The position numbers and the translations under genes are program-made. Positions 23,166-59,042 of a stretch of 64,000 nt of DNA are shown one piece after another (positions within the stretch are counted from its first letter, which is position 1; each line of letters starts with the position of its first letter). The notes under the pieces were generated by a model. That model worked only from the letters and a program-made list of their open reading frames with translations. It ran no database searches and had not been told where the DNA came from. Source of the stretch: an uncultured Candidatus Saccharibacteria bacterium (GTDB lineage Bacteria > Patescibacteriota > Minisyncoccia > Phycocordibacterales > UBA9973); NCBI GenBank assembly GCA_964468315.1, contig CAYXTA010000002.1, positions 319 through 64,318 on the forward strand. The letters are read 5' to 3'.

Positions 23166-24467
23166 TTGTGTATAATCAATAAATATATGGAAAAATGGCG
23201 TAAAAGTATACTTTTTATTGGTGATGGACTTTCTCTTTGTCTGGCTGGATACTTGATGTTAATAAGTCGTTTTGGTTTACCGAAGGCAACAGAACAAATC
23301 CCCCTGCACTTAAAACCATTCATAATTTGGGGTATTTTAGTTTTTCTAATTTTCTATATTTTTAATTTGTACGAAGTAAGTGCGCTAAAACCAACACTCA
23401 ATAACATAAGACAATTTATTTTTGCAATCATTGTAAGTGCAATAACAGGAATAATATTATTTTATATTTTCCCTTTTTCTGTTACACCAAAAACAAATTT
23501 AATCATAACTCAACTATACTTTACTTTTTTCATTTTAATTTGGAGAAGATCTTTCTATCGTCTTTTTTCAAAAAAATTCAAAAACAATATTGCGTTTATA
23601 GGAGAAACACCTGAATCAAAAATACTTATTAAAAACATAACAGATAATCCTCCTATTGGATATGAATACAAAGGTACTTTTGAAAATTTTGAAATGCTGC
23701 AAAAAAGTAATTTTAAAATAAATACGGTTGTATATGCTTCTAGTAATAGTAATATTGATTTATTAGAACTAAGTAGATCAAATTATATTCACTTAGATAT
23801 AAACAAGGCTTTTCAGATTATTCTTTCTAAAATACCAGTTGAACTTATGAATGATGTAATTGCTCTTGATATGCTTGAAGATAGAAAAAATATTCTATCT
23901 AAAACAATAGAAAGGTTTTTAGATATATTTTTTTCTGTATTAGTGTTAATAATAACTCTCCCAATAACAATAGTTACTTCATTTTTAATATACACAGAAG
24001 ATGGTAAAAATATTTTTTACAAACAAAAACGTATCGGGTTAAAAAATAAAGAATTCTCAATAATAAAATTTCGCTCAATGAAAATTGATGCCGAAAAAAA
24101 TGGAGCTGTATGGGCGAGCTCTGAAGATATACGCATAACTCGTATAGGAAAAATAATACGCAAACTTCACATCGATGAAATACCTCAAATGATCAATATT
24201 CTTCGTGGTGATATAACACTCGTAGGGCCAAGACCAGAAAGACCAGAATTCGTAAATATGCTTGAAAAAGAAATTCCATATTATTTTTTAAGACACACAA
24301 TAAAACCCGGATTCACTGGTTGGGCTCAAATAAAATATCGATACGCTCGCACCATAGAAGATTCAAAAGAAAAATTTGAATATGACTTACACTATATAAA
24401 AAACAGAAATTTTTTTCTTGATATGGGAATTATTGTGAGAACAATACAAATAATATTTACTCATTAA
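23166..24467 (+). CDS. Polyprenyl-phosphate hexose-1-phosphate transferase (WbaP/bacterial sugar transferase family), the initiating enzyme.
   Basis: 433 aa. The N-terminus is multi-TM. The C-terminal 'bacterial sugar transferase' domain reads 'KRIGLKNKEFSIIKFRSM...ITLVGPRPERPEF'. The real start may be the ATG at 23187. Confidence 0.85.
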   Translation: MCIINKYMEKWRKSILFIGDGLSLCLAGYLMLISRFGLPKATEQIPLHLKPFIIWGILVFLIFYIFNLYEVSALKPTLNNIRQFIFAIIVSAITGIILFYIFPFSVTPKTNLIITQLYFTFFILIWRRSFYRLFSKKFKNNIAFIGETPESKILIKNITDNPPIGYEYKGTFENFEMLQKSNFKINTVVYASSNSNIDLLELSRSNYIHLDINKAFQIILSKIPVELMNDVIALDMLEDRKNILSKTIERFLDIFFSVLVLIITLPITIVTSFLIYTEDGKNIFYKQKRIGLKNKEFSIIKFRSMKIDAEKNGAVWASSEDIRITRIGKIIRKLHIDEIPQMINILRGDITLVGPRPERPEFVNMLEKEIPYYFLRHTIKPGFTGWAQIKYRYARTIEDSKEKFEYDLHYIKNRNFFLDMGIIVRTIQIIFTH

Positions 24468-24503: not shown

Positions 24504-25331
24504 ATGAGCCACACTCATACTACAGTTATAAAACCTAAGAAATTATTTAGTTTTTCTGACCTAAAAGAAATATGGGAATACAGAGAATTGCTCTATTTTT
24601 TCACATGGAGAGATTTAAAAGTACGTTATAAACAAACAGTTATCGGTGTACTTTGGGCAATATTGCAACCATTTATCACAATGGTAGTATTTACTGTTTT
24701 TTTTGGTGGTTTATTAAAAATTTCTTCTGACGGAGTACCCTACCCTATTTTTGTTTATACCGGTCTTTTGTTTTGGCAATTTTTTTCTTCTGCTCTTACA
24801 GATACGAGTAATGTGCTAATAACAAATCAATCAATAATCACAAAAGTTTATTTCCCAAGACTTTTACTTCCCCTTTCTTCTGTAATGACAAAATTTATTG
24901 ATTTTGCATTTGCTTCGATAATACTAATCGGTATGATGTTCTATTATGGATACACTCCAAACCTTTTAGGATTATTAATCCTCCCCCTTCTTTTAATAAT
25001 CACATTTATGGCTTCAGTCGGTCTTGGCCTTTTTCTCGCTTCAGTAAATGTAAAATACAGAGATGTACGTTATGCTTTACCATTTTTTATACAAATACTT
25101 ATGTTTGTCACACCAGTTATTTATCCAGCAGGAATTGCAGGAAAATATTCTTGGATACTTGCACTCAACCCCATGATGGGTGTCATTCAAAGTGCTCGTG
25201 CTGCATTACTTGGAACAACGGTTCTAAACTGGACATTAGTTAGTATTTCACTTTTTGCTACTTTTATCTTTATGTTATTCGGAATTTACACATTCAAAAA
25301 AACAGAAAGATATTTTGCTGATTTAATTTAA
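24504..25331 (+). CDS. wzm: ABC-2 type polysaccharide export permease (Wzm/TagG-like).
   Basis: 275 aa with six predicted TM helices and an ABC-2 family profile. It sits immediately upstream of the cognate ATPase. Confidence 0.8.
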   Translation: MSHTHTTVIKPKKLFSFSDLKEIWEYRELLYFFTWRDLKVRYKQTVIGVLWAILQPFITMVVFTVFFGGLLKISSDGVPYPIFVYTGLLFWQFFSSALTDTSNVLITNQSIITKVYFPRLLLPLSSVMTKFIDFAFASIILIGMMFYYGYTPNLLGLLILPLLLIITFMASVGLGLFLASVNVKYRDVRYALPFFIQILMFVTPVIYPAGIAGKYSWILALNPMMGVIQSARAALLGTTVLNWTLVSISLFATFIFMLFGIYTFKKTERYFADLI

Positions 25332-25335
25332 ATAT

Positions 25336-26574
25336 ATGGAAAAACCAATAATACAAGTAAAAAATATAGGTAAGAAATACAACATTAATCATCAAAAAAT
25401 TGGTTATGTTACACTACGAGATAAAATAACAAATGTATTTGTGAATCCTTTTTCTTTTTTAATAAATAAAATTAAACAAGTCGCTGGTATAGGAACAAAA
25501 GAAGAATTTTGGGCATTAAAAGATATAAATTTTGAAATAAAAAAAGGTGAAGTTGTAGGTATTGTTGGCCAAAATGGTGCAGGAAAATCTACATTATTAA
25601 AAATACTTTCACAAATCACTCCACCGACGACCGGAGAGATCAAAATCCACGGTACTGTTGGGAGTTTACTTGAAGTTGGAACAGGTTTTCATCCAGAACT
25701 TACAGGAAGAGAAAATATATTTTTAAATGGTGCTATTTTGGGTATAAAGAAAAAAGATATAATAAAGAAATTTGAAAAAATCGTAGAATTTGCAGGTATT
25801 GAGAAATTTCTAGACACTCCAGTAAAATACTACTCTAGTGGAATGTATGTTCGTCTCGCCTTCTCTGTCGCAGCTCATATGGAAACAGATATATTGATTA
25901 TTGATGAAGTACTCGCTGTTGGTGATGCTGAATTTCAAAAAAAATGCCTTGGTAAAATGGAAGATATTACAAAAAACCAAGGACGCACTATTTTATTTGT
26001 TAGTCATAATATGGAGGCAGTTAAAAAAATATGTGAAAAAGTTATTTGGTTAGAAAAAGGATCTGTAAAAGATATTGATAGTACAGAAAAAATAATAAAA
26101 GAATATTTAAATCAAAACAATGATGGTGTGTCTGAAAAATGGATAAATAAAAATAATGTTAAAGAAAATATTTTCTTTAAACCAGAAGTTTTTGAAATAA
26201 TAAGAGAAGATAAAGATATATATATAAAAATAGAAGCAGAAATAAAAGAAATAAATAAAGAGTTAACAATAGGATATGCTTTGTACACAGAAAATATGGA
26301 ACTTTTATACTGGTCATATCAAACAGATGACAATGATATTGAATTAAAAGTTGGTAAAAATATTTTTCAATCAAAACTACCATTAGAAATTTTAAACAAT
26401 GGAAGATATATAATAGAATTAATCGGTGGTATACATGGAAAAGAATGGTTTTTTGAACCAAATAAAGGAAACCCAACATTAATAGTCGAAATAAATAAAG
26501 AATTTAATAATAAACCATTCTGGATTAACCAAAGACCTGGAATATTAGCACCAAAAATATCATGGAAAATATAG
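25336..26574 (+). CDS. wzt: ABC transporter ATP-binding protein (Wzt/TagH-like) with a C-terminal extension of about 170 aa.
   Basis: 412 aa with Walker A 'GQNGAGKST', signature 'YSSGM', and Walker B 'ILIIDE'. The C-terminal extension resembles a Wzt substrate-binding domain. Confidence 0.85.
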   Translation: MEKPIIQVKNIGKKYNINHQKIGYVTLRDKITNVFVNPFSFLINKIKQVAGIGTKEEFWALKDINFEIKKGEVVGIVGQNGAGKSTLLKILSQITPPTTGEIKIHGTVGSLLEVGTGFHPELTGRENIFLNGAILGIKKKDIIKKFEKIVEFAGIEKFLDTPVKYYSSGMYVRLAFSVAAHMETDILIIDEVLAVGDAEFQKKCLGKMEDITKNQGRTILFVSHNMEAVKKICEKVIWLEKGSVKDIDSTEKIIKEYLNQNNDGVSEKWINKNNVKENIFFKPEVFEIIREDKDIYIKIEAEIKEINKELTIGYALYTENMELLYWSYQTDDNDIELKVGKNIFQSKLPLEILNNGRYIIELIGGIHGKEWFFEPNKGNPTLIVEINKEFNNKPFWINQRPGILAPKISWKI

Positions 26575-28031
26575 AAATATATAAAAAGAATATCACTTCC
26601 CAATGGGGAGAGGATGGAATCACAGAAGAAATATTTAAAAGAATCAGTACAAAAGAAAGATTTTGTATAGAATTTGGGGCTTGGGATGGAAAACATTTAA
26701 GTAATGTATGGAACTTATGGCATGAAAATAATTGGTCTGCCCTTTTAATAGAAGGCGATGAGAAAAAATGTAAAGATTTAGAAATATCAGTTTCTAAATT
26801 TCCAAAAGTAAAACCATATTGTGCATTTGTAAAAAAAGAAGGTGAAAATTCTTTAGACAAAATATTAGCGAAAACATTTCCAAATAAAGAAATAGATTTA
26901 CTCTCTATTGATATAGACGGAAATGATTATTACATATTAGAAACTCTCATAGCTAAACCAAGAGTAATCATAATTGAATATAATCCTACAATACCTGTGA
27001 GTTTAGATTTAGTGCAAGGAGAAGATCAATACTTTGGTTCTTCTGCTTTATCTATCAATACTCTTGCTCATCAAAAAGGTTACAAATTAGTATGTATTAC
27101 TGAAACAAATATGTTTTTTGTAAGAGAAGACGAATTTTCAAAATTAGGAATAGATGAGCCTGTACTTGAAAAAATTTTTATTTCAAAACACCTAACATAT
27201 ATAATAACTGGGTATGACGGAACTCCTGTATTAACACAAATACCTACATATAATAATATTCTTAAACTTACAAAACGTGAGATAAATTTCAAAAATGTTA
27301 AACTACCAACAATAAATTTTTCAATATATAAATCAACAAAATCATATATAAAAAATATTACAATTATTTTAGAAAAGATATTGTTAAAAATAAGTCTTTT
27401 TTTTAGAAAAAATAAAAAAGAAGATGAGCAAACAAAAAGAGTTATTCCTTGGTTTAAAATAGATGGAGATAAAACATTAAGAATAAATTATGAGCTTAAT
27501 GGTTCTTCTGTTGTTGTTGATGTTGGTGGATACGAGGGACAGTGGTCAAGTGATATTTTTGCAAAATACCAATGTACTATACATATATTTGAACCAGTAA
27601 AAAGTTTTTTTGAGAAAATAAAAGAAAGATTTACTAAAAACAATAAAATAAATATATATAATTTAGGACTTTCAAATAAAAACAGAGAGATGTCTATCTC
27701 TTTATTAGAAGATAGCTCTTCTTTGTTTAAAGAAGACGCTAAAAATGAACACATACTAGTAACTGATGCTTCAATCTTTTTCAAAGAAAATAATATTGAT
27801 CATATAGATCTAATAAAAATTAATATAGAAGGCGGTGAATATGATTTACTGGAAAATCTAATTGGAACTGGATTTATTTCAAAAATAAAAAATATTCAAG
27901 TACAATTTCACGATTTTGTACCTAACGCAAAAGAAAGAATGTTACAAATTCAAAAAGAATTAGAAGAAACTCACCACATCACTTACCAATATGAATTTGT
28001 TTGGGAAAATTGGGAAATAAATGAAAAATAA
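26562..28031 (+). CDS. Tandem FkbM-family SAM-dependent methyltransferase with two FkbM-like modules.
   Basis: 489 aa. Module 1 has 'CIEFGAWDGKH...IDLLSIDIDGNDYYILE'. Module 2 has 'VVVDVGGYEGQW...IDLIKINIEGGEYDLLE'. Confidence 0.65.
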   Translation: MENIEIYKKNITSQWGEDGITEEIFKRISTKERFCIEFGAWDGKHLSNVWNLWHENNWSALLIEGDEKKCKDLEISVSKFPKVKPYCAFVKKEGENSLDKILAKTFPNKEIDLLSIDIDGNDYYILETLIAKPRVIIIEYNPTIPVSLDLVQGEDQYFGSSALSINTLAHQKGYKLVCITETNMFFVREDEFSKLGIDEPVLEKIFISKHLTYIITGYDGTPVLTQIPTYNNILKLTKREINFKNVKLPTINFSIYKSTKSYIKNITIILEKILLKISLFFRKNKKEDEQTKRVIPWFKIDGDKTLRINYELNGSSVVVDVGGYEGQWSSDIFAKYQCTIHIFEPVKSFFEKIKERFTKNNKINIYNLGLSNKNREMSISLLEDSSSLFKEDAKNEHILVTDASIFFKENNIDHIDLIKINIEGGEYDLLENLIGTGFISKIKNIQVQFHDFVPNAKERMLQIQKELEETHHITYQYEFVWENWEINEK

Positions 28032-28833
28032 TTTAAATATAGAAATTTCAAATATTTCAGTTGTTATACCTAATTGGAATGGAGCAAAAACGCTTGAGAA
28101 TGTTATTAAAAGTTGCATAAATCAAACATTAAAACCTCTTGAGATACTTATTTGTGATGATGGATCAACAGATAATAGTAAAGAAGTTGTAGATCAAATA
28201 AATAATGATTTAGTTAAATGGATTCCACTTCCACACTCTAGAACACCAGCTATTCCTAGAAATAATGGAATAAAAATAAGCAAAGGAGAATGGATTGCTT
28301 TCTGTGATAGTGATGATGAATGGTTGCCGACAAAATTAGAAAAACAAATAAAAAAAGCTTATGAAACAAAATGCAAAGCTATCTGTACTAATGCAATAAG
28401 AAAAATAAATGGTATAAATATAATTGGAAATATGATCAATTATAAAAAAGAAAAAATATCTTTTAATGATTTATTAAATAGCAACAGTGTTGTGTGTAGC
28501 TCATCGATGATTCATAAATCAGTTCTTGAAAAAGTTGGCGGATTTTCAGAAGCAATAGAATACGGCAGTTATGCCGATTTTATATGCTGGCTTAGAATAA
28601 CCACTCAGACTAATTTTGCTTTTATTAATGAACCCTTGGTTATATATGACGACCACCCACAAACAAGTATACGGGCAAATGAAACATCAGCGGAAAGAAT
28701 AAAAATCCTAGCCTTAGATAATTTTATAATATGGTCAAAAAAAATGAATCTCCCCTATTTCAGATATCTTATAAAAAAGAATCTTATAAAAAATAAATTA
28801 TTAAATTTAATCAAAAAAATAATTCATGCTTAA
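28021..28833 (+). CDS. Family-2 glycosyltransferase.
   Basis: 270 aa. 'ISVVIPNWNGAKTL', 'ILICDDGSTDNS' and 'CDSDDEW' are GT-A motifs. Confidence 0.8.
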   Translation: MKNNLNIEISNISVVIPNWNGAKTLENVIKSCINQTLKPLEILICDDGSTDNSKEVVDQINNDLVKWIPLPHSRTPAIPRNNGIKISKGEWIAFCDSDDEWLPTKLEKQIKKAYETKCKAICTNAIRKINGINIIGNMINYKKEKISFNDLLNSNSVVCSSSMIHKSVLEKVGGFSEAIEYGSYADFICWLRITTQTNFAFINEPLVIYDDHPQTSIRANETSAERIKILALDNFIIWSKKMNLPYFRYLIKKNLIKNKLLNLIKKIIHA

Positions 28834-29539
28834 AACAAAATTAAAAAATATAATAAAAAAAATATTCTACAAAAAAAACAAAAATGTCTTAATCAGTAAC
28901 ACTGGAAAAGAATTTGAAGTTAATAATTGGGTATTATCGGAATTTATTATTGATAAAATCATTCCAAGTGTTGGATTTCACCCATTTCCATTAAATGAAC
29001 TAATGCTTATGTCTGGGGCTATTTGTTTTATAAAACCAACTCATTTATTTGAATGGGGTACGCACTTTGGTAAATCTGCAAGGATATTTCATGAAACAGC
29101 TCGTTATTTTAATATCGAAACAGAAATACATTCTATCGATTTACCTGAGAATATAGAACACAATGAGCACCCACACAAAGAAAGAGGTAAATTTGTTAAA
29201 AAATTTAAAAATGTATCTCTACACTTAGGAGATGGATTAGACACTTCCCTTTCTATACTAAAAGGAAAAGAGGGTAAAAAAATAATACCACTTTTTTTTC
29301 TTGATGGTGATCATTCATATGAATCAGTAAAAAGAGAGCTCAATGGGATTTTTGAAAAATACCCTCAGTCAAACATTATAATACACGATACATTTTTTCA
29401 AACAAAAGAAAGCAATTATAATATAGATCCATACGAGGCTGTAAAAGAATTTTTAAAAGATAAAAATGATGTTTTTGTATTAATAGACACAAAGACAGGT
29501 TTACCTGGAATGACATTGCTTTTAAATAAAAAAATATGA
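28826..29539 (+). CDS. Class I SAM-dependent methyltransferase (Methyltransf_24/CmcI-like).
   Basis: 237 aa. 'FEWGTHFGKSARIF' and 'FFLDGDHSYESV' match the Methyltransf_24 pattern. Confidence 0.55.
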   Translation: MLKTKLKNIIKKIFYKKNKNVLISNTGKEFEVNNWVLSEFIIDKIIPSVGFHPFPLNELMLMSGAICFIKPTHLFEWGTHFGKSARIFHETARYFNIETEIHSIDLPENIEHNEHPHKERGKFVKKFKNVSLHLGDGLDTSLSILKGKEGKKIIPLFFLDGDHSYESVKRELNGIFEKYPQSNIIIHDTFFQTKESNYNIDPYEAVKEFLKDKNDVFVLIDTKTGLPGMTLLLNKKI

Positions 29540-31119
29540 AAATAGGAATACTTTATATATGCACTGGTAACTACACTATCTTTTGGAAAGAATTCTATTT
29601 GAGTATGGAGAAAAATTTCATCAACGATTCCGAAAAACATTATTTTGTATTTACTGATGGAGATAAAATAGATTTTGAAAATGAAAATCCAAGAATTCAT
29701 AAAATATATCAGCGTGACTTGGGCTGGCCTGATAATACATTAAAAAGATTCCACGTATTTCTAAAACATGAAAGAAAATTGGCAAATATGGATTATTTGT
29801 TCTTTTTTAATGCTAATTTGCTCGTATTAGAAAAAATTACTCAGGAAGAATTTTTACCTATTAACAATGAGAATCTTGTTGCAGTATTACATCCAGGATT
29901 TTATGACAAAAATAGAAATAAATTCACTTATGAAAATAATAAAAAATCTACTGCATATATATCACCGGAAAAAGGAATACAATATTTTGCAGGAGGATTG
30001 AATGGTGGAAAAACAGCAGAATTCATTAATGCAATGAAAACAATGAAAGAGAATGTATACATTGATACGGAAAACAAGATTATAGCAAAATGGCATGATG
30101 AATCACATTGGAATAAATACTTAATAGACCAAAATGATATAAAAATACTAGGGCCAGAATACCTTTATCCTGAAGGATGGAATTTGCCTTTTAAACAAAA
30201 AATATTAATACGAGATAAAAATAATTATGGTGGACATAATACATTACGAAAAAAACAGGAAACAAAAACTGAAGTATTGATTAAAAAAATAAGGAACTTA
30301 ATGACTAAGATTAGAAAGAATCTTCCGAATTTTGGTAAACTCTTATTTTATAAATACAAAAAAGCATTAATTTTAGATAATGGAGTAGAAATTTTTAATA
30401 CTAATTTACTCATTACAACAATTGCTTTTAATAATCTCGATATACTAAAAATACAGTACCCGCAATTAAAGAAAAATTTAAAAGATGAATTTATATACAT
30501 GATTGCTGATAATTCATCAATATTCTCTTTGTCAGAAGAAATAAAAAACTATTGCATAAATGAAAAAATACCTTATATAAAACTACCGCCAAACCCATAT
30601 AAAAATCCAAGTAAATCACACGGAATTGCTCTCAATTGGGTTTATAAAAATATAATAAAAAAATACGAACCACATTTTTTTGGTTTCTTAGATCACGATA
30701 TATTCCCTTACAAAGAAACATCTGTAATTCCAGATATACAAAATAATGTATTTGGTTTAATACAAGAAAGAGAAAATAAATGGTATCTATGGGCAGGATT
30801 TTGTTTTTATAATTTTAAAAATTTAAAAAATATTACTATGAATTTCATGCCATCAAAAGGCCTCGATACTGGTGGATCAAACTATTACATCTTATATAAA
30901 AATATTAATAAAAATAATTTAAAAAAATTACCTCAAATATATATCGATACTAAAATAGAGAAAAAAGTGTTAGAAATAAATAATTCAAATACAGCTACTA
31001 CTATAGAATGCATAGGTGACTGGATTCACTTAATGAGAATCTCGAATTGGAATGACCAAAAAAATAATAAAACTGATTCTATAGAAAAAATAATTTCTTT
31101 AGCAAAAGAATTGTCATAA
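29536..31119 (+). CDS. GT6-family alpha-1,3-Gal/GalNAc-transferase (bacterial NXN type) fused to a roughly 280-aa C-terminal domain, possibly a second GT-A module.
   Basis: 527 aa. The N-terminal half aligns with ABO/alpha3GalT enzymes: 'HYFVFTDG', 'LHPGFY', 'FTYE', 'YFAGGLNGG', 'WHDESHWNKYL' and 'GPEYLYP'. The DXD position is NAN ('FFFNANLL'), as in metal-independent bacterial GT6. The C-terminal half contains 'IADNSS' and 'GFLDHDIFP' (a DxD-like motif). Confidence 0.75.
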   Translation: MKIGILYICTGNYTIFWKEFYLSMEKNFINDSEKHYFVFTDGDKIDFENENPRIHKIYQRDLGWPDNTLKRFHVFLKHERKLANMDYLFFFNANLLVLEKITQEEFLPINNENLVAVLHPGFYDKNRNKFTYENNKKSTAYISPEKGIQYFAGGLNGGKTAEFINAMKTMKENVYIDTENKIIAKWHDESHWNKYLIDQNDIKILGPEYLYPEGWNLPFKQKILIRDKNNYGGHNTLRKKQETKTEVLIKKIRNLMTKIRKNLPNFGKLLFYKYKKALILDNGVEIFNTNLLITTIAFNNLDILKIQYPQLKKNLKDEFIYMIADNSSIFSLSEEIKNYCINEKIPYIKLPPNPYKNPSKSHGIALNWVYKNIIKKYEPHFFGFLDHDIFPYKETSVIPDIQNNVFGLIQERENKWYLWAGFCFYNFKNLKNITMNFMPSKGLDTGGSNYYILYKNINKNNLKKLPQIYIDTKIEKKVLEINNSNTATTIECIGDWIHLMRISNWNDQKNNKTDSIEKIISLAKELS

Positions 31120-31124
31120 AAAGA

Positions 31125-31955
31125 TTACCAGTATTTTTGATACAGTTTAAACATTTTATTAAAAGAAATACGAAAAGGAAGTTTAACAAAAAAACCATAA
31201 ACAATAATACGAGCTAAGGCACGAAGATATGAAATGAGATAATTTGGATATTTACCTTTAAAATGTTTTATTACTTTAAAAATTTTCTTATATTGTTCTA
31301 TCTTATTTTGTGCACTAATACTTGCATCATGTAATTTAAATCTAACAGAATATGATGATAGGTTTGAAAATTTACCACAAAGTCCAAGACGAAGCCAAAG
31401 ATCATAGTCTTCAACGTGACGTGTATTTACAGACTCATCATAACCACCTATTTTTAATACAACATCTTTTCTAAAAAGAACACTTGAATGTATAAAACAA
31501 TTTTTTCCAAGAATTGTTTTTCTTATTTGAATATCTTTTTCTGGTAAGAAGTATCTGAATAATTCATTATTATTTTCATCAACAATAATCACTCCCGTAC
31601 CAACCAAAACATACTCTTTATTTTTTTCTAAAAACAAAACTTGCTCACTTAATTTATTTTGATCAATCCAAACATCATCGTCATCAATACGAGCTATATA
31701 TTCCCCTTTTGCTTCTCGGAGTCCCTTATTGAGTGTTTTTTGAATACCAAGATTTACTTCATTTTTAATATATTTAATTCTGGTGTCTTGCTTTACAAAA
31801 GTATCAACAATAAAAGCTGTATTGTCCTGTGAGCCATCATCGAGCACCAAAAGCTCCCAATTACTGTATTTCTGGTCTAAAACGCTCTGTATAGCCATTT
31901 CTATACGTTTAGAGCCGTTATATGTTGGTAATATAATTGATACTAATTTATCCAT
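31125..31955 (-). CDS. Family-2 glycosyltransferase.
   Basis: 276 aa. 'VSIILPTYNGSKRI', 'LLVLDDGSQDNT' and 'RIDDDDVW' are GT-A motifs. Confidence 0.8.
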   Translation of the reverse strand: MDKLVSIILPTYNGSKRIEMAIQSVLDQKYSNWELLVLDDGSQDNTAFIVDTFVKQDTRIKYIKNEVNLGIQKTLNKGLREAKGEYIARIDDDDVWIDQNKLSEQVLFLEKNKEYVLVGTGVIIVDENNNELFRYFLPEKDIQIRKTILGKNCFIHSSVLFRKDVVLKIGGYDESVNTRHVEDYDLWLRLGLCGKFSNLSSYSVRFKLHDASISAQNKIEQYKKIFKVIKHFKGKYPNYLISYLRALARIIVYGFFVKLPFRISFNKMFKLYQKYW

Positions 31956-31959
31956 ATTT

Positions 31960-32811
31960 TTATAGTTTTATCCATTCGTTAGGTATTAAATCACTGGTAT
32001 CTATTGATGTATCTGGAAACCAATTTTTAGGTGCGACAACAATTTTGTCTTTATTATCAGAAAGCCATACAGCCCACCAAGAAAATGAACTGTTTGAAAT
32101 AACAAAATTTTTACACTGACTCATTAAGAATAAATGCCCTGTATCTTTTATTCCTAAATATTCATCTCCTACAAACATCACAGGTAAATCAAATTTTAAA
32201 TTATTTTCACACCACTTTATATCATCAGAAAAAACATATATTTTATCTATTTTTTTATTTTTATAAATATAATCAATACCATTTTTATAATAATCATTAT
32301 TCACAACTTCATGATGTTTATTACCAACAAAATCTCCTCTACGTACATGCAAACAGAGTGATTCGTTATTTGAAATTTCTTTAGCAACTTCTTGTATATT
32401 TTGTGGTAAATTATTTTTTAATGTAAAATCTTTACGTATAATATCTTCAAAACCAGAAAAATATTTTGGTGACTGAAAATATCCATCTAAATAAACATCT
32501 TTTCCTAAATCAAAAAATCTTAAATCAAAGTTAAAAGAATTCTCTTTTCCTTTATTTTTCATAAATCTAGAAAAAAAATAATTAAATAAACTGTTTCGAT
32601 ATATAATTGGTATATCTAATTTCCTTGCTATATCTCCTTGTATATTAAAAACATCCAAACTATAAATTCTTTTTGTTACTCCTAATAAATTTAAATCAAA
32701 AAAAGAAGTATCAAATTTTAACTCTGTATTATTTTTTATCGATAAAACTCGTCCCAATGCATATTGAAACATTTGATTACCCATTCCACCTTGTAGTCTG
32801 ACAATAATCAT
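31960..32811 (-). CDS. GT11-family alpha-1,2-fucosyltransferase.
   Basis: 283 aa. The N-terminus 'LQGGMGNQMFQYA' and 'LHVRRGDFV' (the HxRRxD motif) are the GT11 (FutC/WbsJ-type) signatures. Confidence 0.85.
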   Translation of the reverse strand: MIIVRLQGGMGNQMFQYALGRVLSIKNNTELKFDTSFFDLNLLGVTKRIYSLDVFNIQGDIARKLDIPIIYRNSLFNYFFSRFMKNKGKENSFNFDLRFFDLGKDVYLDGYFQSPKYFSGFEDIIRKDFTLKNNLPQNIQEVAKEISNNESLCLHVRRGDFVGNKHHEVVNNDYYKNGIDYIYKNKKIDKIYVFSDDIKWCENNLKFDLPVMFVGDEYLGIKDTGHLFLMSQCKNFVISNSSFSWWAVWLSDNKDKIVVAPKNWFPDTSIDTSDLIPNEWIKL

Positions 32812-32815
32812 AGTT

Positions 32816-33706
32816 TTATTTTTTTAACTCTAAAATACCTTCTTCTAAAGTAATTTTCGGCGACCAATCAAGAAGTTCTTTTACTTTTACAATACTTGCG
32901 CTTGTAGCATATGGCTCAACTCTTTTTTCAATATATACAACTTCCCCACCGATGAGTTCTGCGATTTTATTTATAGAATACGTTTCATTAGTTCCTATAT
33001 TTATTACTTCACCATTACCGACTTTTTCTATTTTCATAGCCATAATATTTGCTTGAGCAACATCAGCAACATTTATAAAACTACGAGTTTGATTACCATC
33101 ACCAGTTATTGTTAGAGGTTTACCTTGTTTATACAAATCTACAAATTTCGCAACAACACAAGGATATGCACCACCGATACTTTGTCTTAAACCGTAAACA
33201 TTAAAATACCGAAGCGATACAGTTTCGACACCATATAAATCTGCCCACAACTTACAATACACTTCACCAATATATTTATGTGCACCATACGGAGAAAGTG
33301 GATTTGAATTCATTGTTTCTATTAAAGGCAAAGTATCTTGATCACCATATACAGCACTTGATGCTGCAAAAATAACTCTCTTAACTCCATTCAAACGTGA
33401 AGCTTCTAAAACATTGAGTAAACCTGTAACATTTACATCGTGTGTTTCTATAGGATTCTCTATTGAATACTGCACTTGTGGCATTGCAGCTTCGTGAAAA
33501 ACATATTTCACATCTTTAAATATTTCTACTAGTTTTCCTTTATCCCTGATATCTACATTATGGAAAATTGCTCGGGAATTAACATTTTCAATTTTCCCAG
33601 CTGATAAATCATCAACAATATGCACTTCATAATCAAGCTCAACTAAAGCATCTACTATATGAGATCCTATGAAACCAGCTCCGCCTGTGACAATAATTTT
33701 TTCCAT
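32816..33706 (-). CDS. NAD-dependent epimerase/dehydratase (UDP-hexose/UDP-HexNAc 4-epimerase-like).
   Basis: 296 aa. Rossmann 'VTGGAGFIGSH', catalytic 'YGAHKYIGE' (YxxxK), short-chain SDR-e architecture. Confidence 0.8.
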   Translation of the reverse strand: MEKIIVTGGAGFIGSHIVDALVELDYEVHIVDDLSAGKIENVNSRAIFHNVDIRDKGKLVEIFKDVKYVFHEAAMPQVQYSIENPIETHDVNVTGLLNVLEASRLNGVKRVIFAASSAVYGDQDTLPLIETMNSNPLSPYGAHKYIGEVYCKLWADLYGVETVSLRYFNVYGLRQSIGGAYPCVVAKFVDLYKQGKPLTITGDGNQTRSFINVADVAQANIMAMKIEKVGNGEVINIGTNETYSINKIAELIGGEVVYIEKRVEPYATSASIVKVKELLDWSPKITLEEGILELKK

Positions 33707-33712
33707 ATATAA

Positions 33713-35725
33713 TTATAATTTAAAACCTGGTATATCTTTCTCTGCTTGTTCAAGTGCTTCTTTGTAAAGTTTTTGATCTCCTTTATTTTTAGCAAAATTA
33801 ATAAAAAATCTATGTGATACTGAAATACTTGGATCTAATGTTATAGCATCTCTATACGCTTTTTCAGCACTACCCAAATCTGTAGTCCATGAATACACTT
33901 GGGCTATTCTCCAATAAACTTCTGGATTACTAGGTGAAATAGTGAGGGTGTGATCTAAAATTTCAAGGATATGTTTACGAGTATTTTCATCATTTGGAGT
34001 ATCAGACAAATATGCTCTGGTGTTGTACAAATCAACAATAGAGATATTCAATCTGTAATCAGTAGGGTTTTCATTTCTGACAATTTCAAGATATTTCAAA
34101 AAATTATCTAAATCTTTTAAGATATACGGTAAGACTTGTTTATTATTTTTTATTGCAACAGCATTTTTAAAAAGTGAACCAAATGTATCGTGTGCTAATC
34201 CACCAATATCCCAAACATCTCCAACAACAGACCCGCCTGCCAGTTCATTGAACGGCTTATTAATTTGTTTACTAAAAACCCTACCGATTGTATCTATTTT
34301 TTTATAAGGTCGATACAAAAAGAATACTAAAGAAATACTACAAAAAATAAGAAGTACACCAACGATAAGGTTTTTAGCATATTGATCAGTTATTTTAAAC
34401 TTGTTATTTTCTATAGAATTATCTTGTAATCCAAAAATAATTCCAACAAAAGAAAATAGCACCATAAAAGATAAAACTGAATCAAAGAAAAATAGATTTT
34501 GAAATACATATCCTACAACTAATCCAAAAAACAATGAGGCTTGCAAGGTGGTCAATATTTCTTTTTCTTTTAATTTATACAAACAAAATAGTATTGAGAG
34601 AATAAAAATAAGATAAAAGATAATTGCTGGATACCCTGCAGAAGCACCGATGTCATAATAAATATTGTGAAATCGATCTGCATATCCTTCATAGTTATAT
34701 TCAGCAAGTAACATCTTTGGGTTAAAATGTGCCTGAAATGCAATTGCCTGATTTTCAGGACCATAGCCAAACCATGGATGTTCATTCATAGACTTCTCTG
34801 CAGTATCCCAAAAAATAAAACGTGTACCAGACGCTACTTGCGTAAATTTCTGATGGAGCTCCGTGTTCGGTGTCACAAGCTGTTTCCAGCCAAACACAAA
34901 AACAATGAGACTAAGAACAATCCCTGTTATACCTAAAAAATGAAATGTCTTTTTCTTTGATAATGCTAAACATCCTAAACCTGTCGCACCTGTGCCAATA
35001 ATAATACCAAGTAATGCTCCACGGGCATTACCGAGCAGACTTCCCCCGGTAAATAAACCGTAAATATTTATAAAAATTGGAGAAAAAATAATCGTAGCTA
35101 AAGCTATACTAATTAATATTTTTGTTTTTTTAGATATATCCTTGAAAGTTAAAAGAAATATACCAAACACAAAAACAAACATCAAGTATGCAGCTGCTAC
35201 TGATGAGTTTCCTGTAAGTCCACCTCCTCCATCAGTAGTTAAAAATTTATATGGTAAATGAAATCCTCCTGAACCAAACCATAAAGATAATGCAAGAATA
35301 AAACCACCAGCAATAAACCATTGTAAAAAATTTTGTATATACTCTTTACCATAGCGATACGTGAGTGAAGCAACAATAAATGTAAATAATAAAGAATGGT
35401 AGAGTGTGAGCAATCCTGTACCACGGGAAAGAGTAGACCAAAATGAAAGATTTGAATCAACAGCCAATATTCCAGCAATTGTCATCCAAATTAAAAAACC
35501 AATAGCTGGTAAAAACCAAAGTAGTGTTTTCTTTGGTAAACGATATGATGGGTCAACTGTTATGGTGTAAATTAAAATACAGACAAGAATATCTACAACA
35601 CCATAAAAAAAGAATGGTTTTGAAGAAAGATGCGGGTATATTCTACTACCGACATAAATAAGCGGTAAAATAAATACAAAAAAATAAGTACCATATTTCA
35701 AAATATTTTTACGAAATAAATCCAT
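33713..35725 (-). CDS. O-antigen ligase/Wzy_C-family polytopic membrane protein with a C-terminal TPR-repeat domain.
   Basis: About 670 aa from the ATG at 35725 (the ORF track extends to a GTG at 35764, which would overlap the upstream terminator). At least 10 TM helices. Wzy_C-like periplasmic loop 'FIFWDTAEKSMNEHPWFGYGP'. C-terminal TPR-like repeats ('AEKAYRDAITLDPS'). Confidence 0.7.
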   Translation of the reverse strand: MDLFRKNILKYGTYFFVFILPLIYVGSRIYPHLSSKPFFFYGVVDILVCILIYTITVDPSYRLPKKTLLWFLPAIGFLIWMTIAGILAVDSNLSFWSTLSRGTGLLTLYHSLLFTFIVASLTYRYGKEYIQNFLQWFIAGGFILALSLWFGSGGFHLPYKFLTTDGGGGLTGNSSVAAAYLMFVFVFGIFLLTFKDISKKTKILISIALATIIFSPIFINIYGLFTGGSLLGNARGALLGIIIGTGATGLGCLALSKKKTFHFLGITGIVLSLIVFVFGWKQLVTPNTELHQKFTQVASGTRFIFWDTAEKSMNEHPWFGYGPENQAIAFQAHFNPKMLLAEYNYEGYADRFHNIYYDIGASAGYPAIIFYLIFILSILFCLYKLKEKEILTTLQASLFFGLVVGYVFQNLFFFDSVLSFMVLFSFVGIIFGLQDNSIENNKFKITDQYAKNLIVGVLLIFCSISLVFFLYRPYKKIDTIGRVFSKQINKPFNELAGGSVVGDVWDIGGLAHDTFGSLFKNAVAIKNNKQVLPYILKDLDNFLKYLEIVRNENPTDYRLNISIVDLYNTRAYLSDTPNDENTRKHILEILDHTLTISPSNPEVYWRIAQVYSWTTDLGSAEKAYRDAITLDPSISVSHRFFINFAKNKGDQKLYKEALEQAEKDIPGFKL

Positions 35726-35754
35726 AAAGGCATTATACCGTAAAAATACAAAAC

Positions 35755-35785
35755 AAAAAAGCACTCATTTCTGAGTGCTTTTTTG
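35755..35785. terminator. Terminator downstream of the surface-protein gene (minus strand).
   Basis: gcactca-tttc-tgagtgc flanked by an A6 and a T6 run. Confidence 0.55.
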
Positions 35786-35829
35786 TGGTTCGCAGTTTTC
35801 CTTCTGTTTAGATGTTTATATCAGTAAGG

Positions 35830-37875
35830 TTAGTTATTGATATATACAGCGTTAGTTCTAAATGCGTCTACAGGTAACAATGTATTAACAGCAGAACCTA
35901 AGCCAAGACCAGCATCAGTAAATGTTTGGATTGTCTTAAGTTGTACACGGTAATAAGTGTTAAGTGTAACAGGACCAGTTAGAGTAACGTTCACAGTAAA
36001 GTGCTTAGCACTTCCTGATGGAAGCATAAAGCCTGTTCCTAGAGCGTTAGCAGTAGCATCATTACTTATGATAGTGTGTGATGCTGTACTTGTCCAGTCA
36101 TTTGAGTAAGAACCTGAAGCTGCGTTTTGGAATACGAATGCAATTGCACCAGAACCTGTTGATGTAACAGCTTCTTGTGTTGATTGACCGATGTATGCAT
36201 CGTTACCGAAAGCAGTGATTGTCAATGGGATACTGTATGAAACTGAAGTTATGTCACCGTTTGAAGCAACAGTTGTTGAAGTAACAACAGAGCCCATAAC
36301 TGTGTTAACACCATTTTCACGTAATGTCATAACATTACCTACAGCTGAACCAAGACGTAATGCTGAATCACTGTCTGTTAATTGATCACCATTTTTGTCT
36401 TGTACTGAGAAGTTTGCAGCAAGTAATACGTCAGCATTAGCTACTGAAGCTACGATTGTTGTACCGTCTGAGTAAGAACCAGATGTCTTTGACTTAAGAT
36501 CAGCAACAACACTGAATTCTACTGTAGAACCAGCAGTTATTGTTTGTGATGATAAGTTAACAAATTTGTAACCAGTTGAAGTTGCACCAGCTGTTGGTGT
36601 AGTTGTTATTGAAGTTGAAATAGTGTAACCATTTGAACCATCAAGTGTATCAACTAAATCAGAACCTCTGTAAAGTTTCAATGTGTTGATAACAGCAGAG
36701 CCGTTAGCACCAACAGTTGTAACTTGAACAGGAACTTTTCTTAGACTCAAGTCAGTATTTGTAGCTTTAACTGTGAATTTAAGTAATGTTTGTCCGTTTG
36801 TTGCAGAAGTGTTTCCAACACCTACGATTGAAGATGATGGATTTGATGTTGATAGACCAACTGTAGCTTTGATACCATTTGAAACAAATTTACCAAACAT
36901 TAATCCTGTTTGTTGTAATCCTGTAGTACTTGGAGAAACAACATCAACATATGTGTCATATGTACCATCTGGTGATGATGCACTTACTCCTCCAGCTGTA
37001 AATGTAACTGTCCAGTTACTATCTGTATCACCTGAATCAAGTGATCCATTAGTATTAACAGAAACATAGAAACGACCAATAGAATCTTTTGCTATTGGAG
37101 CGTTTAATCCAGCGAAGTTGAATGTGTAAATATCACTTGATGTAGCACGATCAGCATCAGCTACTGACATAGTAGCTAATTTTGTAGAACCATTCCATAG
37201 TGAAACACTAGAAATGTATTTTCCAAGATTTGCAGAAGAGTTAGTAAGTGAATTTACAAAAGTAACACGAACGCGGTTAACATTTTGTGAAGACAAACGA
37301 GCTGTTGCACGGAAACCAGCTACAACTTTGTCTGTTTCTGATTCATAAACTGTTGAAACACGGTTTGTTGAATCTAAAGCAATATCAGCTAAGTAGCCGT
37401 TTGTTCCTGATACAACTGAAGTTGAACCTGAACATGAAGCACCAGTTGTTGAACTGAACATAGCACCTGCAGCACAACCAGCAACTGTTGAAGTTGAAGT
37501 TGAACATGGAGCACCAGTTGTTGAGTTAAACATAGCACCTGCAGCACAACCTGAAGTTGTAACTGGTGATGTTGAACCACCTGCTAATTTAGCACGTGAC
37601 ATTGAACCGAATAGACCTGTTGAAGGTAATCCGTTTGCAGCTTGCCATGCTACCACAGCTGCTTTAGTTATAGAACCGAAGTATCCTGTTGCAGGAGATA
37701 CACCGAGTGTATTTTGCAAACAAGTAACTTGACTGTTTCTCATACCTACACTAAGACTCATAGTGATTGAACAATCAGCAGCAGAAACTGATTTTGCTGA
37801 AGCAAAACCACCACCGATAACTAATCCAAGCATCATAACTCCAAGAAGGATTTTTGATTTGAATAATTTACTCAT
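35830..37875 (-). CDS. Secreted Ser/Thr-rich cell-surface protein. It has a signal peptide, an N-terminal peptidoglycan-binding-like domain, two Cys-containing tandem repeats and a long beta-rich S/T-rich region.
   Basis: 681 aa. Signal 'MSKLFKSKILLGVMMLGLVIGGGFASA'. 'CLQNTLGVSPATGYFGSITKAAVVAWQAANGLPSTG' resembles PG_binding_1. The tandem repeat is GCAAGAMF(N/S)STTGA(P/S)CS. The rest is very rich in T/S/G/A/N/V. Confidence 0.75.
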   Translation of the reverse strand: MSKLFKSKILLGVMMLGLVIGGGFASAKSVSAADCSITMSLSVGMRNSQVTCLQNTLGVSPATGYFGSITKAAVVAWQAANGLPSTGLFGSMSRAKLAGGSTSPVTTSGCAAGAMFNSTTGAPCSTSTSTVAGCAAGAMFSSTTGASCSGSTSVVSGTNGYLADIALDSTNRVSTVYESETDKVVAGFRATARLSSQNVNRVRVTFVNSLTNSSANLGKYISSVSLWNGSTKLATMSVADADRATSSDIYTFNFAGLNAPIAKDSIGRFYVSVNTNGSLDSGDTDSNWTVTFTAGGVSASSPDGTYDTYVDVVSPSTTGLQQTGLMFGKFVSNGIKATVGLSTSNPSSSIVGVGNTSATNGQTLLKFTVKATNTDLSLRKVPVQVTTVGANGSAVINTLKLYRGSDLVDTLDGSNGYTISTSITTTPTAGATSTGYKFVNLSSQTITAGSTVEFSVVADLKSKTSGSYSDGTTIVASVANADVLLAANFSVQDKNGDQLTDSDSALRLGSAVGNVMTLRENGVNTVMGSVVTSTTVASNGDITSVSYSIPLTITAFGNDAYIGQSTQEAVTSTGSGAIAFVFQNAASGSYSNDWTSTASHTIISNDATANALGTGFMLPSGSAKHFTVNVTLTGPVTLNTYYRVQLKTIQTFTDAGLGLGSAVNTLLPVDAFRTNAVYINN
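37421..37565. repeat. Tandem direct repeat (2 x ~72 nt) inside the surface-protein gene.
   Basis: ...gaacatgRagcaccagttgttgaRYtRaacatagcacctgcagcacaacc... occurs twice in tandem, encoding the duplicated GCAAGAMFxSTTGAxCS motif. Confidence 0.6.
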
Positions 37876-38473
37876 AAAGTTATTTTTAATTTCTGCGAAG
37901 TAATTTTTTATTTTTTAATATATAAAAATTACTAAACAGGTTCGTGCAATCATTAATTAGTTTCGACAAAACTAAGAACTGCACAATTTTTCTATCACTA
38001 TACTTTTGTCAGCTTTTTAACGAAGACAATAACATAGTGGACAGATATAAACGAAAACATTTCTACCTTGCGATAGACCCGCTTTTAAAGGCGGAGAAAA
38101 CTAAACATTTTTCTTACAGGATTTATTAAATTCTGTAAAAATTACTATTTAATTTTCAATGATCTTTCCTTGTTTCTGTATGAAATTCTTTCGACAAAAT
38201 TTCAAACAAAAACAAATACAGATTGTTAACACAGTTAAGACATATAAAATGCGTGAACTGCATTAACAAGATTATTATAATCCTTACTCTACAAGAGAGC
38301 AAAATTATATGTGGATAACTAAGGTTTTAGGCCTCAAAATCCACTCATACATAATAGCAAATTTTGCTATAAAAAGCAACCGCATACCTACCCTGCCCTA
38401 CAATATATAGAACAGATACATTGAAACAAATCTGGGTGAAAATTAAGTATTTTTTGATAGAGAATCTTTGGGT

Positions 38474-39310
38474 CTATTTAAGAGAATATTTGGACCATCT
38501 CTTCTCACCAATTTTGTTAAGGACATGGTCTTTGACCATTGAGATCAATTCTCTTTGTAGTGTCTTTTCACTGCAAGATTTTAATACAGAATTTTTAACT
38601 TCTTTTATGTCCTTTATGGTTGCTCCTCCAGCTTTTGGATTTGTATCTTTTATATTTTTTATTATTTTAACTATTTCAAATCTTCTCTCTTTCTTTAGCA
38701 TATCGAAACTATCCGAATGTTGTATTGAGAAAGTTTTGTCCGATATAGCTTTCATTAAAGTACTCCCTTTCTGCATCCCAATGTTAGTACTTTTTATATG
38801 TCCTTTATGATGTCCTTTATAAATTAAACTAGTATTTTGGGTAATAATTTCTTTTGTATTATTTATTGGAAACTGATCCTCTTCTACAAAGAAACCTTCT
38901 AAAGAAAATTCATTTTGTTTTGGTGTAAATAGAGCTTTTTTTAGATCTAAAAATTCACGACTTAGAATATTTTTATTCATTATGGAAATCATATTTAGAG
39001 TCAAAGACATGTCCAAAAGTTCTAAAATGATTGCTACTTTTTTTGAAAGGATAAATCTGTTTTCTGTATCAATGTCTGATAAAATTTCTACACCCAATGT
39101 CCTTAATTTATTTCTTATTGGTTCACTTTTATCCATTATGTCCGTTACCATATACATTGCTGTTACAAGCTTATTTGTTTTTGTATAAGAAATTTTAATG
39201 TCCTTTAAGCTATCAAAACTACTCATTTTTTGAGCAGAAATTTGATAATTAGAATTACTAGAATTTGAGGAGTCTTTTATGTTTTTATTTTCTCCAAACA
39301 TAGTGTCCAT
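38474..39310 (-). CDS. Hypothetical protein with a C-terminal winged-helix DNA-binding domain (putative regulator).
   Basis: 278 aa. The C-terminus 'EKTLQRELISMVKDHVLNKIGEKRWSKYSL' matches the wHTH pattern (...L..LV..G.L.R.G.GR...Y.L) seen in Fic/AlbA_2/TrmB-type regulators. The N-terminal 240 aa are unrecognised. Confidence 0.55.
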   Translation of the reverse strand: MDTMFGENKNIKDSSNSSNSNYQISAQKMSSFDSLKDIKISYTKTNKLVTAMYMVTDIMDKSEPIRNKLRTLGVEILSDIDTENRFILSKKVAIILELLDMSLTLNMISIMNKNILSREFLDLKKALFTPKQNEFSLEGFFVEEDQFPINNTKEIITQNTSLIYKGHHKGHIKSTNIGMQKGSTLMKAISDKTFSIQHSDSFDMLKKERRFEIVKIIKNIKDTNPKAGGATIKDIKEVKNSVLKSCSEKTLQRELISMVKDHVLNKIGEKRWSKYSLK

Positions 39311-58914: not shown

Positions 58915-59042
58915 CAAATGATTTAATGTCTTTTAGCTATGACTACAAGTAGTACTTATTGGGAAAGAACCTTAATTACTAGGATTAAGTATAGCATAGA
59001 TGGTGGTAAAAGTCAATGATAAATACTCTTGTAAATTAAGCC

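Follow-up and report, generated by a model that had tools for sequence, protein, structure and literature searches.

A surface-glycan island of a Nomurabacteria-like Patescibacterium encodes a Wzy_C-TPR protein that may glycosylate the adjacent wall-anchored surface protein

We analyzed a 64-kb, low-GC (~0.31-0.33) stretch of DNA (the window) from a Nomurabacteria-like Patescibacterium, a monoderm. Near its middle, a Wzy_C-family membrane protein with C-terminal tetratricopeptide repeats (TPR) is encoded beside a secreted surface protein, and the gene of this Wzy_C-TPR protein adjoins an island of glycan genes (23.2-33.7 kb). The nearest homologues of both proteins were found in metagenome-assembled genomes of Candidatus Nomurabacteria or close relatives. 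Taken together, the locus may be a surface-glycan island resembling the slg loci for glycosylation of surface-layer (S-layer) proteins, in which the Wzy_C-TPR protein would glycosylate the adjacent surface protein; we offer this composite interpretation tentatively, short of even confidence. The Wzy_C-TPR protein itself is very probably a terminal ligase that transfers a glycan en bloc and not a polymerase. The two genes had been singled out by an earlier sequence-only reading, which proposed that a fucosylated glycan built by the locus is transferred onto the surface protein.

The Wzy_C domain and the C-terminal TPR domain named in that reading were both confirmed. The Wzy_C domain (PF04932) was above its Pfam cut-off in the window protein (E=4e-15; 56.3 bits vs 31.7) and was matched in all 42 family members examined. 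TPR motifs in the window protein alone were under the Pfam cut-offs (TPR_8, E=1.3e-3); TPR_11 was matched by 32 of the 42 members, and a family profile run against the PDB found consensus TPR (E=1.8e-53) and the TPR region of OGT (E=9e-25). In the AlphaFold2 (AF2) model of the protein (predicted local distance difference test, pLDDT, 91; predicted template-modeling score 0.90), the C-terminus was all-helical (helices 506-664), with Foldseek matches to CTPR, OGT and MamA. Judged by these profiles and the model, the C-terminal ~200 aa is a genuine TPR domain. With a threshold of E<=1e-30, the family counts 3,622 clusters at 50% identity; of the 150 top matches, most cover the profile almost from end to end.

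The sole PDB relative of the membrane part was the lipid ligase WaaL of Cupriavidus metallidurans (7TPG), which was matched by Foldseek (E=5.8e-6, template-modeling score 0.58 normalized to the target) and by a family profile restricted to the transmembrane (TM) part (E=3.6e-5). R235, R302 and H353 were in register with the Arg/Arg/His of this WaaL (RGA, vRlkiW and HAHN), the set of residues by which R215/R288/H338 of Escherichia coli WaaL are equated with R224/R298/H349 of PglL. R235 is nearly invariant in the family, and the invariant columns include R302, G320, G322, E346, D350, H353, N354 and G364, of which R302, E346, D350, H353 and N354 lie in a large outward loop (aa ~280-354). In the layout given by hydropathy and the AF2 helices, nine TM helices precede this loop, three more follow it, and an additional helix, the 13th, leads into the TPR tail. 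Because the TPR domain follows the extra 13th helix, it is predicted, from the TM count and the WaaL topology, to lie on the outer side, the same side as the catalytic loop.

The protein is therefore like WaaL (7TPG and E. coli RfaL) in its fold and in the Arg/Arg/His of an outward loop between TM9 and TM10, but it has 670 aa rather than ~400-420 aa, 13 rather than 12 TM helices and the added TPR domain; against E. coli WaaL, hhalign gave a weak match (probability 4.8%). Its likeness to the oligosaccharyltransferases (OTases) PglL/PilO/TfpO consists in the Wzy_C core, the conserved Arg/Arg/His, a longer protein with a C-terminal domain and a gene that often sits beside that of a candidate target. 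In addition, a P-x-x-G-x-G motif stands at +15, +18 and +20 from the central Arg and a His at +51, equivalent to R298, P313, G316, G318 and H349 of PglL (PMC3643930). In contrast to PglL, it has no PglL_A or Wzy_C_2 Pfam match, no pilin neighbor and a monoderm host.

The setting of the gene was surveyed in loci of relatives (L or P numbers below), among them 80 species-representative loci anchored on Wzy_C, of which 66 could be evaluated for adjacency to the surface protein. The surface-protein gene lay directly upstream of Wzy_C in 19 of 20 close orthologues, in 2 of 11 intermediate and in 11 of 35 distant ones, that is, in 32 of the 66 loci. A recurrent order of FtsK, a ~280-aa protein, a long intergenic region, the surface protein, Wzy_C, an epimerase and a variable cluster was seen in L001-L004 and L007 and was kept down to 30% Wzy_C identity. 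Wzy_C orthologues 30-50% identical head the clusters of L001, L002, L004 and L007, and one in L003 is 41% identical. The clusters that they head differ in content. L001 combines a Wzx flippase with GT1 and GT2 enzymes; in L002, GDP-sugar genes stand together with two fusions, GLF-GT11 and Wzy_C-FkbM; L003 has GT1 enzymes, a deacetylase and methyltransferases; L004 is marked by the chemistry of a DegT aminotransferase; and L007 holds GT11, a short Wzy_C and gmd/fcl-like genes.

Because the same orthologue heads both Wzx-type and ABC-type clusters, while other clusters own a short Wzy_C, we infer that the Wzy_C-TPR protein is a terminal ligase. A Wzy polymerase of repeat units linked to undecaprenyl diphosphate (Und-PP) is the alternative; in its favor, polymerases have the Wzy_C domain too, and in L001 the protein is the sole Wzy_C protein beside a Wzx flippase. 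However, the cluster in the window depends on Wzm/Wzt, a route that polymerizes in the cytoplasm and needs no Wzy, and separate cluster-specific Wzy_C proteins already exist in L002 and L007. Moreover, the orthologues are 40-90% identical across clusters of differing content, unlike serotype-specific Wzy proteins, and both the fold and the catalytic residues match the WaaL ligase. We consider a polymerase extremely improbable. As a separate observation, two to four Wzy_C-TPR paralogues, all of full length, stand in tandem in some relatives (L003, 10001-15975, three copies; L042, 3731-12567, four copies; L018, 23-4295; also L010, L013, L023, L027, L028, L030, L032, L034 and L035), and these arrays suggest diversified donor or acceptor specificities.

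The candidate acceptor is a Ser/Thr-rich secreted protein of 681 aa with a peptidoglycan-binding-like anchor, as the sequence-only reading had described it. Its N-terminus is signal-peptide-like, with a K-rich n-region, a hydrophobic core and ASA/VSA motifs (read by eye), and the mature protein has ~66 kDa and a pI of 5.5. The PG_binding_1 domain was above the Pfam cut-off (E=2e-8), which agrees with the description of a cell-wall protein; for the alternative label of an S-layer protein, the signals are indirect (secretion, the wall anchor, the weakly acidic pI, the size, the codon bias and a long conserved leader). A disordered linker follows with two Cys-bracketed loops, CAAGAMFNSTTGAPC and CAAGAMFSSTTGASC, and then three or four Ig-like beta-sandwich domains (AF2, whole-protein pLDDT 82), for which the Foldseek matches were surface proteins with Ig-like domains in tandem (the legs of integrin, the Ig-like domains of PrgB and the C-terminus of AgI/II). 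Ser and Thr make up 27.8% of the protein vs a background of 12.4%, the highest value among 45 open reading frames (ORFs) >200 aa; the share reaches 43% in the linker and is 25-31% in the Ig-like domains. The preference for C-ending two-fold NNY codons was 0.547 vs 0.252±0.124 (rank 2 of 52 ORFs), exceeding that of EF-P, ribosomal S6, EF-Ts, ribosomal S2, SSB and RecA, and this codon bias indicates that the protein is probably highly expressed. All of these features fit a major, wall-anchored envelope protein, in which composition and predicted disorder make the linker the most plausible region for O-glycosylation.

Across the family, the linker is a modular stalk in which spacers of Ser/Thr or poly-Thr alternate with one to five Cys-bracketed loops. 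Three interchangeable loop types were recognized, C-x5-[FY]SSTTG-x2-C, CPNGMTLASNC and CPAGYVAxTPVAPxFAxC, and this cassette has no Pfam entry. PG_binding_1 and the loop cassette also occur together on other secreted proteins (L001, 19405-20190, 261 aa; L095, 4086-4838, 250 aa), with partial matches in L053, L057, L062 and L087. The surface protein has six Cys residues, which could form three extracytoplasmic disulfides. A gene for a DsbA-like thioredoxin (21885-22634) lies at the edge of the glycan island; its position there is not conserved in the relatives inspected.

Table 1. Positions (in the window) of the glycan-island genes, the Wzy_C-TPR and surface-protein genes and the elements around them
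Feature	Position	Strand	Basis
Large polyprenyl-phosphate glycosylphosphotransferase (WbaP/WsaP type), initiating	23166..24467	+	Bac_transf E=2.7e-63; TIGR03025 311 bits vs 295.55 cut-off
Wzm-type ABC-2 permease	24504..25331	+	Pfam ABC2_membrane E=2.7e-16
Wzt-type ABC ATPase, 412 aa	25336..26574	+	Pfam ABC_tran; NCBIfam best TagH and galactan Wzt, under cut-offs
489-aa protein, C-terminal FkbM methyltransferase domain, ~310-aa N-terminal part without assigned family	26562..28031	+	Pfam, NCBIfam
GT2 glycosyltransferase	28021..28833	+	Pfam E=2e-33
CmcI/rhamnosyl-O-methyltransferase-like methyltransferase	28826..29539	+	Pfam
GT6-family glycosyltransferase (aa 1-228) with fused ~300-aa C-terminal region without assigned family	29536..31119	+	Pfam E=1e-34
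GT2 glycosyltransferase	31125..31955	-	Pfam E=1.8e-36
GT11-family glycosyltransferase (fucosyltransferase family)	31960..32811	-	Pfam E=1.8e-34
SDR sugar epimerase (GalE/TviC-like)	32816..33706	-	Pfam Epimerase E=7e-61; NCBIfam best GalE and TviC, under cut-off
Wzy_C-TPR protein, 670 aa, 13 predicted TM helices	33713..35725	-	Pfam, AF2, Foldseek, family profile
Wzy_C domain including predicted catalytic outward loop, aa 227-372	34610..35047	-	Pfam envelope; alignment to WaaL 7TPG
C-terminal tail after TM13, aa 472-670, with TPR domain	33716..34312	-	Profile vs PDB TPR proteins, Foldseek, AF2 helices
Intrinsic-terminator-like hairpin, 15-bp stem then T-run	35753..35786	-	Between surface-protein and Wzy_C genes
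Secreted surface protein, 681 aa, candidate glycan acceptor	35830..37875	-	ORF, Pfam, AF2, Foldseek, composition
PG_binding_1 wall-anchor domain, aa ~34-100	37576..37776	-	Pfam aa 59-91; pLDDT >90 over aa 40-100
Disordered linker, aa 101-160, 43% Ser/Thr	37396..37575	-	pLDDT <50; family survey
Long conserved upstream region of surface-protein gene: promoter and probable ~330-nt structured leader	37876..38473	-	Conserved blocks, stems
278-aa protein, possible regulator	38474..39310	-	Always upstream of and co-directional with surface-protein gene

The genes of the glycan island (Table 1) have a variable core with a GC content of 0.271 vs 0.331±0.033 outside, while the Wzy_C gene (0.313) and the epimerase gene (0.331) are at the genomic level. 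The GT6 enzyme also matched NCBIfam Gltr_6 (NF041524) at 303 bits vs the cut-off of 250. Sequence comparison makes the FkbM-domain protein a candidate chain-terminating or modifying enzyme. The Wzt protein has a ~150-aa C-terminal extension, in which the Pfam search did not detect a Wzt_C carbohydrate-binding domain. As for the fucose in the proposed glycan, the island does have a GT11 gene, but family scans of the 64-kb window found no gene for GDP-fucose synthesis, so that 'fucosylated' is a tentative term.

These contents can be compared with the slg loci of Paenibacillus alvei and Geobacillus stearothermophilus (transferases WsfB/WsaB, initiating enzymes WsfP/WsaP, target proteins SpaA/SgsE). 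Such loci have a WbaP-type initiator with Wzm/Wzt, methyl capping, a lower-GC variable core and a monocistronic OTase gene (PMC2943079); their target gene is monocistronic as well and in Geobacillus is close to the cluster (PMC2943079). The S-layer O-OTase WsfB, like PglL, carries a C-terminal TPR, and WsaB has a TPR neighbor, WsaA (PMC2943079). The window shares with them a monoderm host, a Wzy_C protein with a C-terminal TPR as in WsfB, a WbaP-type initiator with Wzm/Wzt, glycosyltransferases, methyltransferases available for capping, a lower-GC variable core, and a candidate target gene near the cluster with its own terminator. It differs from them in its Patescibacteria host, in a candidate target with a PG_binding_1 anchor and a series of Ig-like domains, and in glycan genes that include GT6 and GT11 and no rml genes. 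In the relatives, moreover, the same ligase heads Wzx-type clusters too, and the island is missing from some of them.

On this comparison, a pathway can be proposed in which both the topology and the order of the steps are inferred. The WbaP-type phosphoglycosyltransferase would prime undecaprenyl phosphate, and the GalE/TviC-like epimerase may supply the reducing-end sugar. The GT2, GT6 and GT11 enzymes would extend the chain in the cytoplasm, the two methyltransferases would modify or cap it, and Wzm/Wzt would export the finished lipid-linked glycan. Outside the membrane, the Wzy_C-TPR protein would then move the glycan en bloc from Und-PP to an acceptor by means of its Arg/Arg/His loop, and the outward-facing TPR domain would recruit a protein acceptor. 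The leading candidate acceptor would be the wall-anchored Ig-like surface protein, modified at Ser/Thr residues of the linker.

That the acceptor is a protein is partly supported by the conserved outward TPR domain, the size of the enzyme relative to lipid ligases, the slg-like gene content and the adjacency of the two genes. Lipid ligases are short (TacL 397 aa, RfaL 419 aa and WaaL 401 aa; PMC5727136), and at only ~400 aa they have no room for a TPR-type domain, whereas the ~200-aa TPR tail is kept in thousands of members of the present family. Genes of the PglL type adjoin those of their targets in 21 of 31 cases (PMC3643930); the target is usually a pilin. A further difference from WaaL is that the lineage is reported to be without lipid A and LPS (lipopolysaccharide) genes and without a lipid A-core acceptor (PMC5220378).

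Several observations weigh against the adjacent protein as the acceptor. The likeness of the window protein to WsfB/WsaB is one of architecture and gene content, and slg targets are S-layer lattice proteins with the glycan of the cluster on Ser, Thr or Tyr, a property that the surface protein here would have to share. PglL_A (PF15864) and Wzy_C_2 gave no match to the window protein at E<=1, nor did either rank among the 25 families that the 42 members matched most. We also rejected a Gly pair as a discriminator between PglL and WaaL; G320 and G322 are invariant here, but WaaL 7TPG has the same P-W-T-G-V-G. Thus, the comparison with PglL/PilO and WaaL matched the WaaL fold without discriminating the type of acceptor, and the proposed transfer onto the surface protein gains from the Wzy_C-TPR architecture and the slg-like context, but from no feature that separates a protein transferase from a lipid transferase.

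The linker and the gene order count on the same side. The FSSTTG loop was rejected as a glycosylation tag: a small sample gave a hint (11/11 loci with the island vs 3/6 without), which was gone in a larger one (19/35 island-adjacent vs 4/9 island-less loci). The Ser/Thr content of the linker was 35.5% with the island and 33.3% without it, and the loop type was likewise independent of it. In nine loci (L006, L094, L095, L098, L099, L102, L103, L104 and P0157), the surface protein had no Wzy_C or island beside it, the order being FtsK, the ~280-aa protein, the surface protein, a short insert and ribosomal L10/L12; these loci were found via the surface protein, and several were picked as probably outside the Wzy_C list, which tilts the sample toward loci without the island. 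We conclude that the island is an accessory element; where it occurs, it separates the surface-protein gene from core genes, and Wzy_C and the epimerase form its conserved edge. The pairing of the two genes is thus not obligatory, and their adjacency may come from a hot spot for insertions. Synteny is generally high in this region and extends to FtsK, RecA and EF-P. Adjacency as proof of coupling is weakened by this synteny together with the nine island-less loci. Distant Wzy_C-TPR members (23-27% identity) adjoin glycan genes and families read as SecA-like and MurB-like rather than this surface protein. Finally, a strong terminator between the surface-protein and Wzy_C genes makes co-transcription unlikely.

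The main rival is a TacL- or WaaL-like lipid ligase, which would move the glycan from Und-PP onto a membrane glycolipid and so yield a lipoglycan or a lipoteichoic-acid-like polymer. Instead of binding a protein acceptor, the TPR domain would then serve as a scaffold for the machinery of export or ligation, and the neighboring surface gene would be an accident of island insertion. There is a monoderm precedent in TacL of Streptococcus pneumoniae, a Wzy_C ligase that acts on a glycolipid and completes an Und-PP-linked surface-polymer pathway (PMC5727136). The WaaL structure as sole solved relative points the same way, as do the best NCBIfam matches of Wzt, which are teichoic-acid export ATPases (under cut-off), the nine loci with a surface protein and no island, and the independence of the linker features from the island. 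However, this rival must account for a TPR tail that the ~400-aa ligases do not have; the difference from TacL is 670 aa with this tail vs 397 aa. No glycerol- or ribitol-phosphate transferase, no other teichoic-acid-specific gene and no obvious anchor-glycolipid synthase was recognized in the island, and Patescibacteria are generally without de novo lipid synthesis and LPS (PMC13293708, PMC5220378). We regard a lipid acceptor as unlikely on this evidence.

A further possibility is that the Wzy_C-TPR protein glycosylates mainly other secreted proteins, such as those with the stalk cassette or pili encoded elsewhere, and that the neighbor is at most one among many substrates. PglL-type enzymes are often general (PMC3643930), the stalk cassette is found on the other proteins described above, and distant members have no full-length surface-protein neighbor; the tandem paralogue arrays would also suit diversified specificities. 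On the other hand, 19 of 20 close orthologues have this single protein family as their neighbor, and no pilin-like ORF was found in the 64-kb window or within ±6-10 kb of the Wzy_C gene in 87 relative loci. The last result also led us to reject pilin glycosylation in the style of PilO/TfpO, as no ORF with a class-III signal peptide was present in the window or in any relative locus. A general or differently targeted O-OTase is in our view quite unlikely.

Alternatively, the enzyme might attach the glycan to peptidoglycan or a wall polysaccharide, into which its TPR domain would extend. Genes in the window for MreB, MreC, Ddl and a D-Ala-D-Ala carboxypeptidase point to a wall of peptidoglycan, and no LCP-family ligase was found in these 64 kb. 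An LCP gene could nevertheless sit elsewhere in the genome, the window being only 64 kb, and none of the Wzy_C enzymes known to us uses peptidoglycan as its acceptor. A wall ligase is highly improbable. Glycosylation of the adjacent surface protein remains the interpretation that we prefer, at the tentative strength given above.

The junction between the two genes bears on their limits and their transcription. A mechanical ORF call gave minus-strand ORFs of 681 aa (35830..37875) and 683 aa (33713..35764), the latter with a GTG start at 35764. Because this GTG falls within the 15-bp stem of the terminator (35786..35753) and the closest Wzy_C-TPR homologues (P0001 and P0002) have 670 aa, in a family mostly of 660-695 aa, the start of the Wzy_C gene was placed at ATG 35725, and the limits that the sequence-only reading had given for both genes, including this start, were correct. 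A TATAAT (35741-35736, minus strand) lies past the terminator of the surface-protein gene and ~10 nt ahead of this ATG. No Shine-Dalgarno sequence was visible at the start of the Wzy_C gene (35725-35790, minus strand), and the mRNA may be near-leaderless. From this arrangement, the surface-protein gene is probably monocistronic, with its own strong terminator and a separate transcript.

Upstream of the surface-protein gene, ~600 bp contain blocks conserved across seven loci (the window, L001, L008, L012, L013, L016 and L029), although the proteins are only ~45-50% identical. The blocks include a perfect DnaA-box-like TTATCCACA, one ATTATAATA, GGAAAGGTCATTGAAAATTAAATA and CTTAGTTTTGTCGAAACTAATTAATG, and TTT[CT]GTCGAAA occurs twice, with short inverted arms. 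RNAalifold gave stems with conserved arms, loops of variable length and some compensatory pairs, the covariation term being small (-0.23), and an Rfam search of 37876-38473 gave no family match. The region may be a promoter with operator sites followed by a structured leader of ~330 nt. The next gene encodes a 278-aa protein, a possible regulator by its sequence relatives: HTH_DeoR was detected in the L003 orthologue and weakly or faintly in those of L104 and L103, while the copy in the window had no Pfam or NCBIfam match.

Other features of the window and of the relatives were noted in passing. A second candidate surface protein of 640 aa (51662-53584, minus strand) has a DUF11 domain and 18% Ser+Thr, and a 264-aa ORF (343-1137, minus strand) has a Ser/Cys-rich C-terminus (DSGHSSCSSSSCSSS). 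No other ORF of the window prefers C-ending codons as strongly (0.571) as the one at 58234-58917 (minus strand, 227 aa), whose GC3 of 0.46 is unusually high as well; it had no Pfam or NCBIfam match, and by its codon usage it would be either highly expressed or foreign. A PTL_trimer (PF26696) protein adjoins the surface-protein gene in L003 (9381-9977), L102 (9103-9912) and L103 (9274-10083); in L003 its gene separates the surface-protein gene from Wzy_C, and in the two loci without the island it is on the opposite strand. In a distant subgroup (L036-L083; Yonath-, Nealson- and Harrisonbacteria and others), genes for an 831-aa protein (14 loci) and a 381-aa protein (13 loci) lie downstream of Wzy_C and were read as SecA-like and MurB-like from their N-termini (e.g. 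L070, 8574-11066; L039, 2730-3872). This subgroup also adjoins an epimerase and families read, from the N-terminus and size of a representative, as a Wzx-like flippase and a phosphoglycosyltransferase. The 733-aa RecA of L002 (1288-3489) has intein-splicing and LAGLIDADG homing-endonuclease domains and thus contains an intein.

A literature search for O-antigen ligases or OTases in Parcubacteria/Patescibacteria found nothing relevant and no description of this family or locus. The cell envelope of the Candidate Phyla Radiation has been called unclear, and a glycosylated S-layer in it has only been speculated upon (PMC13293708, PMC5220378). Since the kind of system is known from slg and PglL, what would be new here is the phylum and the architecture of the target. 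Whatever the acceptor, the locus gives concrete candidates for testing: a surface protein conserved in Nomurabacteria-like lineages, a conserved terminal glycan transferase and a variable low-GC island. Should a lipid prove to be the acceptor, lipoglycan ligases with a TPR domain would form a class of their own. If it is a protein, O-glycosylation of the slg/PglL type would extend to a very large section of the bacterial tree, most of it uncultured, and the locus would offer a handle on surface variation in episymbionts (host recognition and phage receptors) and on new O-OTases, possibly with relaxed donor specificity. In a broader form that we consider improbable, Parcubacteria-type Patescibacteria would share an undescribed, lineage-wide protein O-glycosylation, in which this large family, through its outward TPR domain, reads the disordered, Ser/Thr-rich, disulfide-looped stalk of PG_binding_1 proteins, and hypervariable glycan cassettes, exchanged horizontally and lying beside the major surface-protein gene, produce a serotype-like coat; if this were true, the sugar coat would shape the host attachment and phage susceptibility of these episymbionts.

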